A DNA stretch of 64,000 bases from PVC group bacterium (GCA_945870225.1 CAMBRF010000009.1:16321-80320); one strand, 5' to 3'. Positions 2,984-44,167 are shown, numbered from the stretch's first letter. Numbers and translations are program-made. Notes: generated by a model from the sequence alone, not told the origin.

Positions 2984-4335
2984 GCCAAGCCTCCTCTTTC
3001 AATCTCGTTTACAATGTTCAAAAACTGTTCGCCACGATCCTCAAAACTCTTAAACTGGTCAAAACTCGCACAACCCGGGGAAAGTAAAATTACCTCTCCT
3101 GATACGGCCTCCTTCCAGGCTTCATGAATGGCCTCCTTCAAGCCCGCACACATACAGCACGAAACGGCGTCTTGCCACGCCGAGGCCATGACCTGCGAAT
3201 ATTTACCGATAAGATAGACACGCTTCACCCGATTGACCAGTATTTTTTTTACCGGTTCTAAATCTTTTTCTTTCAGCAGTCCCCCGGCGATCAACCGCAC
3301 GGGTCCCTTCGCCATACGGATCCCCGCCTCCATGGCGGCCAGATTCGTGGCCTTGGAGTCATTAATGAACGTCACACCCCCGAGCGTGGCGGCCGTCTGC
3401 ATCCGGTGGGGCAGGCGCTCGAACGCCGCCGCCGCCGTCCCGACATGCTGCGGAGCCACGCCGCACCCCGCCAGCGCCGCGACACACGCCGACGCCGTCA
3501 GCCCCATGATGCCGTTGTCAAACGCGGTTCCTGCCACCGATACAGGTTCCGCCAGATAACGACTCTGAATCCGTCCACCCTCGTAACGGTAATCCGCGCC
3601 CGGACCCGCGCCGAACGTCCGGATGTTACACAATGAGGGAATGGCCGCGCGGACGGCCGCCGGCGCGTCCAACGGAAGCACCGCCGTCTGGCCCGCCGTC
3701 ATGCGGGCAAACAACCGCGCCTTGGCGGCCTGATAGCCTTCCATCGTCCCGTGCCGGTCCAGGTGATTGGGATTGAGGTTGAGCAGAATCCCCACCTCCG
3801 GGGCAAACCGGTCCACGGTCTCCAATTGAAAGGAACTGACCTCGGCGACAATCCAGTCGGGCACGGGTCGCTGCCGCGCCAGCGCGGAGACCGGGATCCC
3901 GTAATTCCCGCCCGCCACGGCGTTCAGCCCCGCTTTTTCCAAGGCCTCCCGGCACAATTTCACCAGGGTGCTCTTGCCGTTGGAACCCGTCACCGCCAGC
4001 ATCCGGCTGGAAGCGTAACGCCAACCCAGCTCAAGTTCGGACAGGATGGGCAGCCCCCGTTGCCGTGCCTGCCGCACCGCCGCATCCGTCAGGGGAATCC
4101 CCGGACTGATCACGCCGAGGTCAAACTCTCCCGGCGGCAGATCGCGGCTCCCGGTGTGGACGGTGACCCCTTCGGCCCTCAACGCCGCAGCTCGCGCCTC
4201 GATCGCGGGGGAGCCCCCCGCATCCATGATGGTCACGCGCACGCCCCGTTCCTGCAATAGCCGGGCGGCGGCTTCGCCGCTGGCGCCCAGCCCCATGATC
4301 AGGGCCGCTTGACAGGTGGGAACATCGTGAGTCAT
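2980..4335 (-). CDS. murD: UDP-N-acetylmuramoyl-L-alanine--D-glutamate ligase MurD
   Basis: Mur ligase motifs (VTGSNGKSTLVKL, DSKATN). The ORF extends to 4431, but the ATG at 4333-4335 (MTHDVPT) removes the overlap with mraY. Confidence 0.85.
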   Translation of the reverse strand: MTHDVPTCQAALIMGLGASGEAAARLLQERGVRVTIMDAGGSPAIEARAAALRAEGVTVHTGSRDLPPGEFDLGVISPGIPLTDAAVRQARQRGLPILSELELGWRYASSRMLAVTGSNGKSTLVKLCREALEKAGLNAVAGGNYGIPVSALARQRPVPDWIVAEVSSFQLETVDRFAPEVGILLNLNPNHLDRHGTMEGYQAAKARLFARMTAGQTAVLPLDAPAAVRAAIPSLCNIRTFGAGPGADYRYEGGRIQSRYLAEPVSVAGTAFDNGIMGLTASACVAALAGCGVAPQHVGTAAAAFERLPHRMQTAATLGGVTFINDSKATNLAAMEAGIRMAKGPVRLIAGGLLKEKDLEPVKKILVNRVKRVYLIGKYSQVMASAWQDAVSCCMCAGLKEAIHEAWKEAVSGEVILLSPGCASFDQFKSFEDRGEQFLNIVNEIERGGLA

Positions 4336-4343
4336 GACCGAAG

Positions 4344-5444
4344 CTACCGAATTTTCAGTGTCGCAATCCCCAGCAGGGCGAAAAGAATCGACAGGATCCA
4401 GAAGCGGATGGTGACCTGGGTCTCGCTCCATTTACGCAACTCGAAATGATGATGAATCGGGGCCATGGCAAAAATCCGCTTACCCCTCAACTTGAACGAG
4501 GCCACTTGGAGAATGACGCTCATCGCCTCCATGACGAACACGCCGCCCACGATCACCAGCACCAGTTCCTGCTTGGTGAGAATCGCCACCATGGCCAGGG
4601 CGCCGCCCAGGGCCAGACTGCCGGTATCGCCCATGAACACCTGGGCCGGGTGGCAGTTGTACCAGAGGAACCCCAGGCACCCGCCCAACAGGCAGCCACA
4701 AAAAACGGTCAGTTCGCCACAGCCGGGCACATAAGGGACAAACAGATATTCGGCAAAGGGCCGATGCCCGGCCACATAGGCCATCACCAGGTAGGCCAGG
4801 GCCACGGAACTGCTGCAGCCGATCGCCAGCCCGTCGAGGCCATCGGTCAGGTTGACGGCATTGGAGGCCCCGACCACAATCAACGTGATGAAAATCAGCG
4901 TCAGAACAATGCCCATGTCCACCACGGCGGGCGCCTTGAGAAACGGCACCATCAACTCGCGCACCTGCATTCGGGTTTCCGGCAGCCAGAGCAGAACCGC
5001 GCCAATCACCAACGCCCACAGGACCTGGAGTTTGAATTTGGCCCGGGCACTGAGCCCGGCGGCGCTCTTGCCCTTCAACTTGGCCGAGTCATCCATGCAA
5101 CCCACCGCCCCCATGAAGATGAAGGTGGACAAGGTGAGCCAGATAAAGGAACTGGTGGGTCTGGCCCACAACAGGGTGGACAGGGTCACGGACCCGATGA
5201 TCAGAAGGCCGCCCATCGTCGGGGTGCCCTCTTTTTTCCCATGCAGGACATGGAGTGGCGGGGCCTCCTCCTTGCGGACGTACTGCTGAACCTTGAGCCG
5301 TTTCAGTTGCCGGATCAGCCAGGGGCCAAGGATGACACTGAGCAGAAACGCGGTGGCCGCCCCACCCAGGGTGCGGACCGTGATGTATTTAAAGACGCGC
5401 AGTTCGGAGATCCAAAACCCGAGAAGATGCAAATAGTACAGCAT
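4344..5444 (-). CDS. mraY: Phospho-N-acetylmuramoyl-pentapeptide transferase MraY
   Basis: Polytopic membrane protein with MraY signature stretches (MGDTGSLALGG, NAVNLTDGLDGLA). Confidence 0.9.
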   Translation of the reverse strand: MLYYLHLLGFWISELRVFKYITVRTLGGAATAFLLSVILGPWLIRQLKRLKVQQYVRKEEAPPLHVLHGKKEGTPTMGGLLIIGSVTLSTLLWARPTSSFIWLTLSTFIFMGAVGCMDDSAKLKGKSAAGLSARAKFKLQVLWALVIGAVLLWLPETRMQVRELMVPFLKAPAVVDMGIVLTLIFITLIVVGASNAVNLTDGLDGLAIGCSSSVALAYLVMAYVAGHRPFAEYLFVPYVPGCGELTVFCGCLLGGCLGFLWYNCHPAQVFMGDTGSLALGGALAMVAILTKQELVLVIVGGVFVMEAMSVILQVASFKLRGKRIFAMAPIHHHFELRKWSETQVTIRFWILSILFALLGIATLKIR

Positions 5445-8309: not shown

Positions 8310-10057
8310 GGCGTGACACGGGCTTGGGAGGCAATGGCCGACCGGTCCTCGATGGCGGGACCCGGCGGAAGAAGGCCCAGATAACGCGCCGCCTGTTCGG
8401 CGACCTCGCCGAAAACCGGCGCCGAAACGATTCCCCCGGTATGCAGGGGCTGGGGCTCATCCATCACGACGATCATGCCGAATTCAGGATCGTCCGCCGG
8501 CATGAACCCGACAAACGACGCCATGTAGTCCGTCTCCGAATAATGGCCCTTGACCGGTTTCTGGGCGGTCCCTGTTTTACCGGCCACCTTGAATCCCTCC
8601 ACCGCCGCCTTGGTGCCCGTCCCGCCGGGCTCGGTGACGTGCGCCAGAATCTCCCGCATCACGGCCGCCGTGTCGCTCCGGATACACCGGCCCAGCGCCT
8701 GCGGTTCGTGGCGGACCAGCACGGTGCCGTTGGGGGAGACGACCTCCTTGATGACATAGGGCCGCATCATGATGCCGTCATTGGCGATGCCGCACATGAT
8801 GCCCAGCATCTGGAGCGGGGTGACGGCCACACCCTGCCCGATCGCGATCCGGCTCGAACTGATGGAGGACCATTTCGAGGCCGGGGCCAGGATGCCCCCC
8901 TCCTCGCCCGGCAGATCGATGCCCAGGCGGCTCCCGATATTGAACCCGCGCAGATAGCGATCCAGGCGTTCGTCACCGAGCATGATGGCAATCTTTGCAG
9001 CCCCGATGTTGCTCGATTTCTTGATGATGTCCGCGACATTCAACTGCGAATACGGATGGTAATCACGCAGCACTTTTTTCTGGTAAAGCCACCGCCCGTT
9101 CTCCGTGTTGAACATGGTCGTGGGTGTCACGATGCCCTCGTTCAGGGCGGCGGCAATGACGGCCACCTTGAACGTCGAACCCGGTTCATAAACATAACCG
9201 ATGGCGCGGTTGAGTTTCTGCTCATCCGTCGCGGAGCGGAAGTCGTTCGGGTTGAATCCCGGCCGGTTCACCATCGCCAGAATTTCACCGGTTCGAACGC
9301 GCTGGATGATGGCGGAGGCCGCCTTGGCCCGGTGCTTCTCCATGGCGGCATCGATCGATTTTTCGAGCATGTACTGCAGGTTCTGGTCGATGGTCAGCAC
9401 CACATCGGCCCCGTCGCGGGGCTGAATCTCCTGGATGCGGCGGTCCAGCATCTCGCGCCGCCGGCCGTCCAGCTGGCTCTCCAGCAGGCCGGGTGTCCCC
9501 TTAAGATACTTGTCCATGCACTGTTCGATGCCCCAGGACCCGACACCGTCGTGATTTACAAACCCCAGAATATGGCAGAGCATTTCCCCCTGGGGATACG
9601 AACGGGTGGTGGTGTCCGACAAGTGGATACCCGGCAGTTTCAGCCGGGCCACGGCGTCGGCCTGTTCATCCGGGACGTACCGGGCGAGATAGACGAAACG
9701 ACGCCGCTCCTGATTCATCAGGGTGGCTGTCTCCGTCGGGTTCAGACCCAACACGGCGGCGACCTGGGACGCCACCACGCCGACCTTGTTGCTGGCGATC
9801 AGCACCGACGGGTCAGCCCAGACGTCCTTGGCCCCGACATTCGCCGCGAGAATATTGGCGGAGGGGCCACCGTCCAGGATCCGGCCCCGGGGAACCGCCA
9901 ACGTCTCCTTATACGTCCGGGTCTTGGAAGACATCGAGCGGGATTGCTCCCCCGCCCCAAGGTGCAGGAAAACAAGACGAACCGCCAGCCCCGTCATCGC
10001 CAGACTCAGCATGATGGCGAGGACGAAATATCTGGCCGATCCATGTTTCTCAGTCAT
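8306..10057 (-). CDS. ftsI: Peptidoglycan D,D-transpeptidase FtsI (class B PBP)
   Basis: N-terminal TM anchor, PBP dimerisation region and transpeptidase motifs (STFK, SSN, KTGT); position in the dcw cluster. Confidence 0.85.
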   Translation of the reverse strand: MTEKHGSARYFVLAIMLSLAMTGLAVRLVFLHLGAGEQSRSMSSKTRTYKETLAVPRGRILDGGPSANILAANVGAKDVWADPSVLIASNKVGVVASQVAAVLGLNPTETATLMNQERRRFVYLARYVPDEQADAVARLKLPGIHLSDTTTRSYPQGEMLCHILGFVNHDGVGSWGIEQCMDKYLKGTPGLLESQLDGRRREMLDRRIQEIQPRDGADVVLTIDQNLQYMLEKSIDAAMEKHRAKAASAIIQRVRTGEILAMVNRPGFNPNDFRSATDEQKLNRAIGYVYEPGSTFKVAVIAAALNEGIVTPTTMFNTENGRWLYQKKVLRDYHPYSQLNVADIIKKSSNIGAAKIAIMLGDERLDRYLRGFNIGSRLGIDLPGEEGGILAPASKWSSISSSRIAIGQGVAVTPLQMLGIMCGIANDGIMMRPYVIKEVVSPNGTVLVRHEPQALGRCIRSDTAAVMREILAHVTEPGGTGTKAAVEGFKVAGKTGTAQKPVKGHYSETDYMASFVGFMPADDPEFGMIVVMDEPQPLHTGGIVSAPVFGEVAEQAARYLGLLPPGPAIEDRSAIASQARVTP

Positions 10058-14691: not shown

Positions 14692-14921
14692 GCTTCTTCC
14701 CATTCGCCCGTGCGATAACGATATCACAAACAGACCCAACTTTTTTCACCATGCTCTATTCGCAATTATCCAGCCTATTGTCCACCATTGAAATTCATGA
14801 AAAGCCCCGGAATTCCAACTGCTGAGAATACGGGGGTCTTTTTGCATTTTCGAGAAACAAAGCTTTAATCTTCGCTTGATCTTTCTTGCTTAACCTCGCA
14901 CTCTTCGCTTCGTTGCATTTT

Positions 14922-41018: not shown

Positions 41019-42200
41019 ATGAGTCCAGCCATTGGTCCCGCGAGCCCTTCTCGCACACCTGCCCAGAAAAGCGCCCGCCCGTCCTCCGCCCCGAAAAGAC
41101 CCGCGGCTCCTTCGCAAAAATCCGCCCGGCCGCTCCACAATAAGCGGGTCCGCGGGGCTAATAAGATTGTCAACAAGGACTTGCCTTCTTTCTCGCGCCA
41201 GATGGCCGCCATGCTGGCAGCGGGCATGCCCATCGTCGCATCCCTTGAAACCCTCGAGGAACAGGCGGTCAACCCAAACTTCAAGATGGTCCTATCGGAG
41301 GTCAGAAAAAGCATCGAGGGTGGGGCCTCCTTCTCCGAGAGCCTGGCGCAAATACCTGACGTTTTCGAGGTGCTTTACGTCAACATGGTCCGCGCCGGGG
41401 AACAGAGCGGACAGTTTGCCGAAACCATGAAGCGTATCGGAGACCTGCTTGAGGCCAACGCCAAGCTCAAACGTAAGGTCAAATCAGCCCTGACTTATCC
41501 GGTGGTGGTTCTGTCCATGTCCCTGATCATTGCGGCAGGCATGATCATCTTCATCGTGCCGGTCTTTGCGAGCATGTATAAGGATTTCGGTTCGGCCTTG
41601 CCCGGGCCCACCCAGTTCCTGGTCGATCTAAGTGATGGGGCCAAGAAATACAGTCCCATCATTATCCCGGCCATCTTGGCAGCGGTGTGGATGTTCAAGC
41701 GCTGGAAGAAAACAGACGCCGGCGCCTGGGTCATGGACGGGTTTGCACTCAAGGCCCCCGTCATCGGCGGCCTGGTCCAAAAAGTGGCCATCGCCCGATT
41801 CTCCCGAACTCTGGCCCAACTCGTTCAAAGCGGCGTCCCCATCTTGAATGCCATGGAAATTGTCGCCAAGGCCGCCGGAAACCGGGTGATCGAGGCTGCC
41901 ATCATGGAGGCACGCCAGTCGGTTGAACATGGCGACACGCTGTCTGTCGGCTTATCCAACAAGGCCTGCATCCCCACTCTCGTCGTCCGAATGATGGCCG
42001 CCGGAGAGAAAACAGGAAAAGTGGACGAAATGCTGAGTAGCGTGGCCGACACCTTCGACGATGAGGTGGAAACCATGCTGGCGTCGCTGACCTCCCTGCT
42101 CGAACCCCTGCTTATGGTCTTCCTCGGCGTCGTGATCGGCGGCATCGTAATCTGCATGTTCCTGCCGATCTTTAAGATGAGCGAAGTCATCAATAAATAA
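41019..42200 (+). CDS. Type II secretion / type IV pilus platform protein (GspF/PilC family) with a low-complexity basic N-terminus
   Basis: Two GspF domains (LSRQMAAMLAAGMPIV...; ARFSRTLAQLVQSGVPILNAME...) and three TM helices; AGGGAG RBS. Confidence 0.8.
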   Translation: MSPAIGPASPSRTPAQKSARPSSAPKRPAAPSQKSARPLHNKRVRGANKIVNKDLPSFSRQMAAMLAAGMPIVASLETLEEQAVNPNFKMVLSEVRKSIEGGASFSESLAQIPDVFEVLYVNMVRAGEQSGQFAETMKRIGDLLEANAKLKRKVKSALTYPVVVLSMSLIIAAGMIIFIVPVFASMYKDFGSALPGPTQFLVDLSDGAKKYSPIIIPAILAAVWMFKRWKKTDAGAWVMDGFALKAPVIGGLVQKVAIARFSRTLAQLVQSGVPILNAMEIVAKAAGNRVIEAAIMEARQSVEHGDTLSVGLSNKACIPTLVVRMMAAGEKTGKVDEMLSSVADTFDDEVETMLASLTSLLEPLLMVFLGVVIGGIVICMFLPIFKMSEVINK

Positions 42201-42242
42201 GGACGCCTCGCACGGTCCACTCAAGCAGGACGAAGAAAACAC

Positions 42243-42568
42243 TTCACCACCCGCTTCGCTTGAGACACGGAGACACAGAGAAGAAAATGCAAATGTGGCG
42301 TTTGTTTCGTCCACGGAAATACCGTGGCCAAAATAAACGCCACGGTTTCCCGGAGGAATTCATAGAGAGGGACGAGGCCGCCCTAACCCTCTTCTTTCTC
42401 CTGAATGGCTCCAAGAGACGTTGCGGGAATTTTAGGTGCGGCTTGCCCGCCGGAGCCTTGGCGCAGGTGGGTACTCCGCAGCTTAAATGCCTGCAAACTT
42501 TCTTCTCTTCTCGGTGTCTCCGTATCTCCAGCTTGCCCGCCTGAGGCGGGCGAAGCGGGTGGTGAATC
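42243..42568. repeat. Large nested inverted-repeat element (~325 bp) in the pilC / sigma54-activator intergenic region
   Basis: A 17-bp perfect IR (ttcaccacccgcttcgc / gcgaagcgggtggtgaa) plus adjacent ~25-bp imperfect IR arms enclose a ~210-bp interior that itself holds a near-perfect hairpin (gtggcgtttgtttcgtccacgg / ccgtggccaaaataaacgccacgg). Confidence 0.55.
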
Positions 42569-42790
42569 TTCCTTTTGGAGGTGTTAAGGCGGTCAAGCCT
42601 GGGCGGACATAGCCCCCGTCATTTAGGAGACTCTACACTGGATGACTTGCCGCTCCAGGGAGTTCCCGGCCACAACTCTGCCCTTCAGCAGGTCCATATT
42701 CCCGTCTTCGAGAAATTGAGAAATTTATTGCCTTTTAACGGGAATGAAAGTACCATCTGGGCCAGTATTGATGATTCAGAAAGGCAAATC

Positions 42791-44167
42791 ATGGCGCGGA
42801 TTCTCCTTGTTGACGACGAACCCCGAATGCTGAGCCTCATGAACAGCCTTCTCAAGGCTGAAGGCTACGACGTCATGTCGGTTCAGGACGGGAACAAGGC
42901 TCGGGACCTCCTGAATACGGAGATTTTCGACCTGATGATTTCCGACATCCGCATGACCCCCATCAACGGGATGGAACTCCTGAAGATATCCCGCGGGGTT
43001 CGCCCGACCATGCCGGTTATCATTCTGACGGCCTTCGGCTCGGTGGAAACAGCCATTGAGGCCATGAAACTGGGGACATTCGACTACGTCACCAAGCCCT
43101 TCAAGATGGACGAACTCCTGATCACCATTCAACGGGCGCTGGAATACAGCCGCGCTTTGTCCGAAAATCTGGAACTTAAAGAGGAACTCGTCGGCCGGTA
43201 CAAATTTGAGAATATCGTGGCCGAAAGTCCCGCCATGCGCCACGTATGCGAGATGATTAAACGCGTGGCCCCGGCCGACACCACGGTTCTGATCACCGGC
43301 GAAAGCGGAACGGGGAAGGAACTGGTCGCCAAGGCGATCCATGCCTACAGCCGCCGCAAGGACAAGCGGTTTCTAGCCGTCAACTGCGCCGCCCTGCCCG
43401 AGGCCCTCCTGGAATCAGAAATGTTCGGCCATATGAAGGGCTCTTTTACGGGCGCATCCGCCAACAAGGAAGGCCTTTTCGAGACGGCCAGCGGCGGCAC
43501 CCTTTTCCTGGATGAAATTTCGTCCATGCCGATCGGAATCCAGGGAAAACTGCTCCGCGTCCTTCAGGAAAAAGAAATCCGGCGAGTGGGAGGGAACGAC
43601 GACATTTCCATCGATGTGCGCGTCATTGCCGCCACCAATACCAGCCTGGAATCGTTGATCCAGCAAGGAAAGTTCAGGGAAGACCTCTACTACCGGCTGA
43701 GTGTTATCCCCATTGAAATCAAGCCCCTGCGCGACCGCCAGGATGATATCCTCCCCCTCGTCTATCACATTTTACGCCATGAGACCCCGGAAGGAAAGGA
43801 TCTGCCCAAACTGCTCCCGGAAACCAAGGACATGTTGGAGCGGTATACCTGGCCCGGCAATGTTCGCGAACTCGAAAATGCCGTTAAACACGCCATCACC
43901 TTCTCAGTGGAAGGCAAAATTACCCCCGACGTTCTTCCCCCGAGAATCCTGAATCAGATCCAACCTCTGGCCAAGCCCAACGCCTCAACCGACCCCGCCA
44001 GTGATCCTTATCGCAATAAATCGTTGAAATCCTTCCTGCGCGAACGGGAACGGGAGTATCTGGAACAGGTTCTCTCCCTTTCGAAGGGTGATAAGGAGCA
44101 GGCCGCCAAATCCCTGAAGATCAGTCTCGCCACGCTCTACCGTAAACTCCCCGGGGCACCGGAATGA
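42791..44167 (+). CDS. Sigma-54-dependent response regulator (NtrC/PilR family enhancer-binding protein)
   Basis: REC domain (ILLVDDEPRMLSL...DLMISDIRMTPINGMELL), AAA+ sigma54-interaction domain (GESGTGKELVAKAIH, GAFTGA-like ESEMFGHMKGSFTGA) and a C-terminal HTH; ATG at 42791. Confidence 0.85.
   Translation: MARILLVDDEPRMLSLMNSLLKAEGYDVMSVQDGNKARDLLNTEIFDLMISDIRMTPINGMELLKISRGVRPTMPVIILTAFGSVETAIEAMKLGTFDYVTKPFKMDELLITIQRALEYSRALSENLELKEELVGRYKFENIVAESPAMRHVCEMIKRVAPADTTVLITGESGTGKELVAKAIHAYSRRKDKRFLAVNCAALPEALLESEMFGHMKGSFTGASANKEGLFETASGGTLFLDEISSMPIGIQGKLLRVLQEKEIRRVGGNDDISIDVRVIAATNTSLESLIQQGKFREDLYYRLSVIPIEIKPLRDRQDDILPLVYHILRHETPEGKDLPKLLPETKDMLERYTWPGNVRELENAVKHAITFSVEGKITPDVLPPRILNQIQPLAKPNASTDPASDPYRNKSLKSFLREREREYLEQVLSLSKGDKEQAAKSLKISLATLYRKLPGAPE

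Follow-up and report, generated by a model that had tools for sequence, protein, structure and literature searches.

The DNA considered here is a 64,000-nucleotide stretch from a PVC group bacterium (the window), in which a pilC-like gene for a T2SS/T4P platform protein (41019-42200, plus strand; Pfam domain T2SSF; stop codon TAA at 42198-42200) is followed, after a spacer of 590 bp, by the gene of a response regulator/sigma-54 activator resembling PilR (42791-44167, plus strand). Starting directly behind the pilC stop codon, most of this spacer is occupied by one copy of a palindromic repeat of ~440 bp (~42201-42642), and between this copy and the activator gene lie ~150 bp of promoter-proximal spacer that are intact in the window and kept in relatives. 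The original prediction had placed an inverted-repeat element at 42243-42568, and these limits hold for the inverted-repeat-bounded core, a structure of 325 bp, but not for the full unit, because homology to an independent copy (L024) spans 42229-42642 (84.5% identity over 414 bp by BLAST), so that the repeat unit is ~75 bp longer on the right and somewhat longer on the left. Its left limit is firm from 42229 and appears to lie at ~42201, with 42201-42228 probably belonging to the element as well.

All features described in the following are given on the plus strand. The left tail (42201-42242) has a degenerate or truncated terminus, contains CCACTCAA, which is common to the tails of other copies, and at 42203-42222 resembles, by eye, the interior of the left terminal repeat of L024. 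The core then opens with the 17-bp inverted repeat that had been noticed at the outset, which is indeed perfect (17/17 between 42243-42259 and 42550-42566). Its left arm, TTCACCACCCGCTTCGC, is kept in copies at other loci, for which the consensus reads (GA)TTYACCAC, with or without CCGCTTCGC or a small hairpin with a GAGTAC loop, and the terminal pair covaries, being C-G in eight copies and U-A in five; its right arm is GCGAAGCGGGTGGTGAA. The imperfect arms that had also been described are recovered as 30-nt segments (42258-42287 and 42503-42532) with 87% complementarity, the left one being made up of purine-rich GAGRCACN repeats (GAGACACGGAGACACAGAGAAGAAAA, 42260-42287) and its partner lying in a pyrimidine-rich right arm (TTTCTTCTCTTCTCGGTGTCTCCGTATCTCCAGC, 42499-42532), and both the arm pairs and the terminal pairs are retained across 15 copies.

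Between these arms lie three hairpins, of which hairpin A (42295-42343) contains the near-perfect interior hairpin of the original prediction (42295-42316 / 42322-42343, 86% complementary) and consists of an outer stem of 13 bp (GTGGCGTTTGTTT / AAATAAACGCCAC) and an inner stem of 6 bp (CCACGG / CCGTGG), which are separated by the internal loop CGT / CCA and capped by the loop AAATA. It is the most conserved module of the family, and the window hairpin scores 84 bits with the covariance model R1 of hairpin A. Hairpin H2 (42352-42412), taken from the MFE structure, has a purine-rich 5' side (GGAGG...GAGAGGGACGAGG) and a pyrimidine-rich 3' side (...CCCTCTTCTTTCTCC...GGCTCC), and the same module is found in other copies with a sequence that differs from copy to copy. 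Hairpin B (42420-42498) combines an outer stem (GTTGCGGGAATTT / AAATGCCTGCAA(A)C) with the core GTGCGG-insert-GTACT-CCGCAG; in the window its loop is reversed relative to hairpin A (GTACT) and its stem is different, and it gives a weak minus-strand match to R1 (14.6 bits, E = 0.77), while its equivalents in other copies reach 38-84 bits on the strand opposite to hairpin A. The insert is a 30-nt sequence, GCTTGCCCGCCGGAGCCTTGGCGCAGGTGG (~42440-42469), which L024 lacks and which is similar to a module in the arms of two further copies, L032 and L038. The GC hairpin that had been reported in the 3' arm, GCCCGCC-TGAG-GCGGGC, does lie there (42535-42551) and is a variable module inserted in the right arm, since other copies have GCCGAGTACGGC or GCCTGGAGTACCAGGC at its position. 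Finally, the right tail (42567-42642) opens with a T-rich run, TCTTCCTTTT, and ends in the terminal repeat GGAGACTCTACACTGG (42626-42641), the only intact outer terminus of the window copy, whose reverse complement matches the left terminus of L024, CCAGTGTAGCGTCTCA.

Folding and the reading frame through the element

That the element is highly structured is borne out by folding, as the RNA of 42235-42575 reaches an MFE of -185.7 kcal/mol, where dinucleotide shuffles give -113.0 +/- 5.3 (z = -13.75, with 0/100 shuffles as good), and the minus strand of the same segment is nearly as stable (z = -11.98). When folded as single-stranded DNA with DNA parameters, 42201-42645 also gives z = -8.3. The predicted shape is a cloverleaf formed by hairpins A, H2 and B and closed by the long purine/pyrimidine stem together with the 17-bp terminal stem. 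The comparison with Rfam matched no known RNA family: with gathering thresholds the whole window gave 0 matches, and with the limit relaxed to E <= 10 the spacer gave only generic, chance-level hairpins (best E = 0.5-9). A simple consensus scan of 42100-42850 found no canonical intrinsic terminator, the T-rich run after the closing stem being suggestive only. If co-transcribed with pilC, the very stable RNA cloverleaf with the U-rich run behind it would probably act as a 3' stabiliser or bring about partial termination ahead of the activator gene.

The 94-aa ORF inside the element (42260-42544) had been suspected of being spurious, and this suspicion proved justified, for it has no Pfam match and its apparent homologues keep DNA motifs in different reading frames. 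A protein-database search with this ORF returned 13 'proteins', all of which are ORFs called in other copies of the repeat, and in their alignment the stretch encoded by hairpin A is near-invariant. Because the right arm is conserved in two different frames of these spurious ORFs (as AKRVVN and as EAGGES), conservation acts at the nucleotide and not at the protein level.

A dispersed family of mosaic repeats

By searching with the spurious ORF at the protein level and with the conserved hairpin core at the nucleotide level, ~40 distinct copies were found in unrelated gene neighbourhoods, and the element is thus not specific to this locus, uniqueness in the genome being one of the conditions that the original prediction had named against itself. 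The family resides in MAGs and metagenomes of freshwater PVC, Verrucomicrobiota and Kiritimatiellia bacteria, and its hosts are uncultured freshwater organisms of the PVC/Verrucomicrobiota type. An exact-pattern scan with the hairpin core gave 14 loci in six MAGs (2-4 per MAG; labelled Verrucomicrobiota, PVC group and Kiritimatiellia, and all from lakes), many of them near contig ends, and a metagenome scan with the core pattern gave ~35 true family loci, the remaining matches being chance occurrences in coding sequence. With R1, 89 hairpin sites with 57 distinct sequences were found among the best 150 matches in 387 kb of fetched DNA, and the 64-kb window itself holds only this one element. 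The copies in L024, L025, L026 (which has two) and L027 all have different flanking genes, and on the contigs reached through the spurious ORFs these unrelated neighbours include genes for RsgA, an ABC-F ATPase and an aminoglycoside phosphotransferase-like protein (APH). The window shares its sample of origin with L024 and L027, and L027 is identical to L040, a contig of the MAG CAMDCX (PVC group bacterium MiH-14oct19-100) that also holds L029; the window is therefore probably part of CAMDCX as well, which would then carry at least four copies (window, L024, L027 = L040 and L029). Plasmid and phage collections gave no blastn match to the element.

Several of these loci deserve a mention of their own. 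In one contig (L077) an element sits in each of three consecutive intergenic gaps (551-861, 2038-2347 and 3570-3894, the last being L052), only 10-40 nt from the genes, and another (L067) has three elements (3262-3581, 4887-5216 and 8958-9135), so that such saturated lake metagenome contigs, with up to three copies in 6 kb, are far denser than the genome of the window, where 64 kb contain a single copy. In L027, ~4.6 kb away from the complete copy, there is also a lone piece of an arm (14784-14816; 31-33 nt with 88-90% identity to the left arm), which is possibly a decayed copy. The arm alone proved to be an unsafe search key: the 17-mer TTCACCACCCGCTTCGC recurs in viral contigs of IMG/VR (L002-L023), within a conserved coding region (peptide ...FTTRFA...), and all 22 of these matches are single arms inside coding sequence that were dismissed as chance and unrelated.

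Across the family the same layout returns, beginning with a tail, an arm (TTYACCAC type followed by GAGRCACN repeats), AAATGT, hairpin A and GGTTTCTTGGAG, and continuing with H2, CTCCAAGAG, hairpin B, ACATTT, the complementary arm, GTGGTRAATC with its T-rich run, and a second tail. Hairpin A follows the pattern GTGGCGTTTATTT-CGT-CCACGG-RAATA-CCGTGG-CCA-AAATAAACGCCAC, and hairpin B has a related outer stem (GTTGCGGGAATTT...) with its core or loop in the opposite orientation, so that in most elements the two match R1 on opposite strands. The tails are of several types and the ends are heterogeneous, the outer termini including GGGGTRTCCNTTT... and CCAGTGTAGNGTCTC. One mini-module of 22-24 nt, CCCTTCGACnnnGCTCAGGGCAGG, occurs in either orientation in some copies and is missing from near-identical ones (L035 vs L080; L041 vs L055), and one such mini-module can sit inside another, as it does in L067 and L093.

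What is kept in the hairpins is the pairing rather than the sequence of the stems. In an alignment of hairpin A from 22 copies, 98% of the cells are paired, four pairs show double changes, and 35 double-change cells are observed where shuffles give 12.9 +/- 2.3. The outer stem covaries as GTGGCG/CGCCAC, GTTGCG/CGCAAC, GTAGCG/CGCTAC, TTTA/TAAA, GGGA/TCCC and GAGA/TCTC, and the inner stems are almost freely variable and still complementary (CCACGG, CCATGG, TCCCGCG, GACAGGG, GATGCGGG and TTTTGGG with their partners, among the 57 distinct hairpin sequences). The terminal arms change together in the same way, TTCACCAC with GTGGTGAA and TTTACCAC with GTGGTAAA. By contrast with these variable stems, the hairpin loop is constant across the wider set (GAGTAC or RAATAC) and the internal-loop bases CGT...CCA are fixed, and these constant loops may serve as recognition sites for a protein. 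When whole elements were aligned with MAFFT, RNAalifold found the arms and hairpin A again but missed H2 and hairpin B owing to indels, so that covariation figures for the whole element are incomplete.

Empty sites, termini and duplications

The behaviour of the repeat at single loci was followed by recovering orthologous pilC-activator loci through their PilC homologues. The spacer is only 214 bp long in L105 (PilC 84% identical) and in L109 and L110 (91%), and it is 224 bp long in the P0023 contig (PilC 95% identical), where the length comes from gene coordinates only; no match to the family was found in any of these. The relatives with an empty spacer retain the promoter-proximal ~150 bp that are also present in the window, and this counts, together with the empty Rfam result, against the 5' leader or sRNA specific to this locus that the original prediction had proposed as one possibility; for the pilus locus the element is an insertion that lies outside the conserved regulation. 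Other relatives (L106-108, PilC 83% identical) have a 530-bp spacer with a different variant of the family, and since the closer relatives, three in number, have no element there, independent gains in the window and L106 lineages are the simplest account. The spacers of L105 and L109 are too diverged from the window for the insertion boundaries to be placed.

The clearest traces of insertion come from other copies. At L079:703-1088 a 386-bp element with the termini AAGGGGTGTCCCTTTGA... / ...TCAAAGGGATAGCCCTT has TAAAACAA on both sides, an 8-bp target-site duplication, and the orthologous site in L027, whose flanks share 92-94% identity, is empty and shows TAAAATAA once. In L106 (4195-4578; also in L107 and L108) the element is bounded on both sides by a 10/10 direct repeat, AAATAGGGAA, that includes the pilC stop codon, and this insertion suggests a preference for A-rich sequence at gene ends. 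The termini of the L079 and L106 elements share the form GGGGTRTCC... / ...GGAYASCCC, and those of L024 match each other by eye at 14/17 positions (CCAGTGTAGCGTCTCA / TGAGACACTACACTAG). Duplications of this kind, for which the flanks of 42243 and 42568 had been singled out, were not found around the window copy, whose left end is degenerate and abuts the pilC stop codon, and none was found at L024, its closest relative. Given the heterogeneous ends, the termini that bear duplications could belong to an outer element inside which the inverted-repeat-bounded core is nested.

The copies are probably moved in trans by a transposase, most plausibly of DDE type to judge by the terminal repeats and duplications; a non-exhaustive look through ~650 kb of fetched loci noticed neither a transposase nor an autonomous partner with matching termini. 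Foreign sequence inside the hairpins of L054 and L028 was considered as such a partner and rejected, as it is a group II intron with reverse transcriptase and maturase. This intron lies inside a family hairpin at L054:1-2115 (minus strand), right after ...CCGTGGCCGAAAT and with the 5' end GTGCGCTGGGCATGACTGAG, its ORF (L054:202-1698) carries RVT_1 and GIIM maturase domains, and the same junction recurs in a second, different copy (L028:~52), which suggests that the group II intron homes to family hairpins. Another pair of loci, L025 (~9900) and L026 (~9452), is 99.5% identical rightwards from the left terminus of the element (GGGCGcATATGAGCTC...) and unrelated leftwards, so that the break in synteny coincides exactly with the element end.

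Weighing the readings against known elements

Taken together, the feature in the window is likely one copy of a dispersed, non-coding, mosaic palindromic repeat that behaves as a MITE-like non-autonomous mobile element, which was one of the two possibilities that the original prediction had offered. The element is small (<~600 bp), non-coding and multi-copy, has terminal inverted repeats and is polymorphic in presence; its copies stand in many unrelated contexts, orthologous loci are filled or empty, and complete relatives combine terminal inverted repeats with target-site duplications. The family is apparently undescribed, as the literature searched on Verrucomicrobia with REP, MITE or REPIN, and on the sequence motifs themselves, gave no description of it, although the kind of element is familiar and it is not a new kind of RNA gene. 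If this is correct, uncultured freshwater bacteria of Verrucomicrobiota-like type are rich in a repeat family absent from Rfam and from the literature searched, which accounts for contig breaks and for spurious small ORFs in their MAGs, offers a marker for strain-level variation, and, through the filled and empty pair with 92-94% flank identity, shows recent transposition among close relatives. Readings of the feature as a retron, an attC site or a CRISPR were dropped, there being no RT or integrase, no array structure, or the element being multi-copy.

Among the alternatives, a regulatory structure specific to the pilus genes, either a leader of the activator gene or a dedicated terminator of pilC, would fit the position between pilC and a PilR-like activator and the very stable fold, yet the same element stands beside genes as unrelated as those for RsgA, the ABC-F ATPase and APH, and relatives whose PilC is 84-95% identical lack it in the corresponding spacer, which contradicts this reading and makes it extremely improbable. 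More can be said for the view that the repeat is primarily a functional structured RNA module, either a multi-copy cis-acting element that stabilises mRNA 3' ends, terminates transcription or marks processing sites, or a small RNA, whose secondary structure selection on the transcript would maintain and whose spread as a repeat would be secondary, a view that overlaps with the MITE-like reading. Strong covariation, a 14:2 orientation bias and an asymmetry in G-U pairs are unexpected for a purely selfish DNA repeat: stems undergo compensatory changes around constant loops, the strand on which hairpin A reads forward is the more stable RNA in 17/23 non-redundant copies and has more G-U pairs (171 vs 125), hairpin A is co-oriented with co-directional flanking genes in 14/16 cases (by rough gene calls, and with a few of the loci being orthologous), and a U-rich run follows the closing stem. 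However, either strand of this near-symmetric unit folds (z = -13.8 and -12.0), Rfam offers nothing at E <= 10 beyond chance-level hairpins, copies lie 10-100 nt from genes on both sides with no conserved promoter seen, they occur in co-directional (22), convergent (7) and divergent (7) spacers alike, their module content varies freely, and at the pilC-activator locus the closest relatives lack the element. The strand asymmetry itself could stem from transcription- or replication-linked mutation bias, and the copies are not independent samples. I therefore regard the RNA module as a rather unlikely primary identity, while the transcribed repeat may still have a role at the RNA level, given its conserved structure, its orientation bias and its G-U asymmetry. 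Selection on the transcript has been proposed for REPs and ERICs, and here the strand constraint could reflect such selection or equally a strand-biased insertion or mutation. Its strong covariation around fixed loops and its orientation bias make the family a reasonable test case for RNA-level selection on MITE-like or REP-like repeats. A bolder combination, in which a bacterial SINE-like RNA module spreads in the manner of a MITE, keeps its three-hairpin fold by selection on the transcript, binds a dedicated protein through its fixed GAGUAC/RAAUAC and CGU/CCA loops, and lends its hairpins to group II introns as homing sites, is quite unlikely; were it true, there would be genome-wide cis-acting RNA elements between the genes of uncultured freshwater PVC bacteria.

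It is similarly doubtful, and a good deal less probable than the MITE-like reading, that the inverted-repeat-bounded core is of REP/REPIN/BIME type and that a RAYT-like HUH tyrosine transposase, instead of a DDE enzyme working on terminal repeats, mobilises it in the form of single-stranded DNA hairpins. The inner hairpin CGT-CCACGG-AAATA-CCGTGG-CCA can be read as a CGTC-type tag and a CCA tail around a short stem-loop, which is the architecture described for CGTC REPs (Di Nocera et al. 2013, PMC3733652). In the manner of head-to-head REP dimers, the core or loop points one way in hairpin A and the other way in hairpin B, the copies keep strictly to intergenic sites and may occupy each gap along a row of genes, and neither the window copy nor that in L024 shows a duplication. 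Against this, the units, at 185-470 bp, are 5-10 times larger, REPs having 20-40 bp and REPINs ~100 bp, complete relatives have target duplications of 8-10 bp that REPINs do not make, and CGTC REPs are themselves reported to have no known dedicated transposase (PMC3733652). The tag and tail comparison is likewise divided, as the window core fits CGT...CCA, but the tag sits inside a longer helix (13-bp outer stem) and not at a free end, the inner stems have 6 bp and not 8-9 bp, and many copies have other tags.

Placed beside known systems, the MITE-like family resembles the large structured non-coding RNAs of Rfam in its size of ~300-400 nt, its extreme folding z-score and its covarying helices, and differs from them by its many copies, its near symmetry between the strands, its polymorphic presence and its changing module content, with no family match. 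With REP, BIME and REPIN elements such as the CGTC REPs (PMC3733652) it shares the CGT(C)/CCA-flanked stem-loop, head-to-head hairpins, mosaics of modules, a strictly extragenic location and a very high density in some genomes. Unlike them, it has a much larger unit, a tag within a longer helix, shorter inner stems and, in complete copies, target-site duplications. Structured modular MITEs are known from several bacteria, including ERIC/IRU of enterobacteria, Correia elements of Neisseria, BOX and RUP of pneumococci and Nezha of cyanobacteria. The present family has no sequence similarity to ERIC, Correia, BOX, RUP or Nezha and stands apart from them in its uncultured freshwater PVC hosts, in the three-hairpin cloverleaf closed by GAGRCAC-repeat arms, in stems that covary around fixed loops and in its heterogeneous termini; what it has in common with them is a small, non-coding unit present in many intergenic copies, terminal inverted repeats, target-site duplications where copies are complete, a presence that differs between close genomes, size variants formed through internal insertions and a probable co-transcription with its neighbours.
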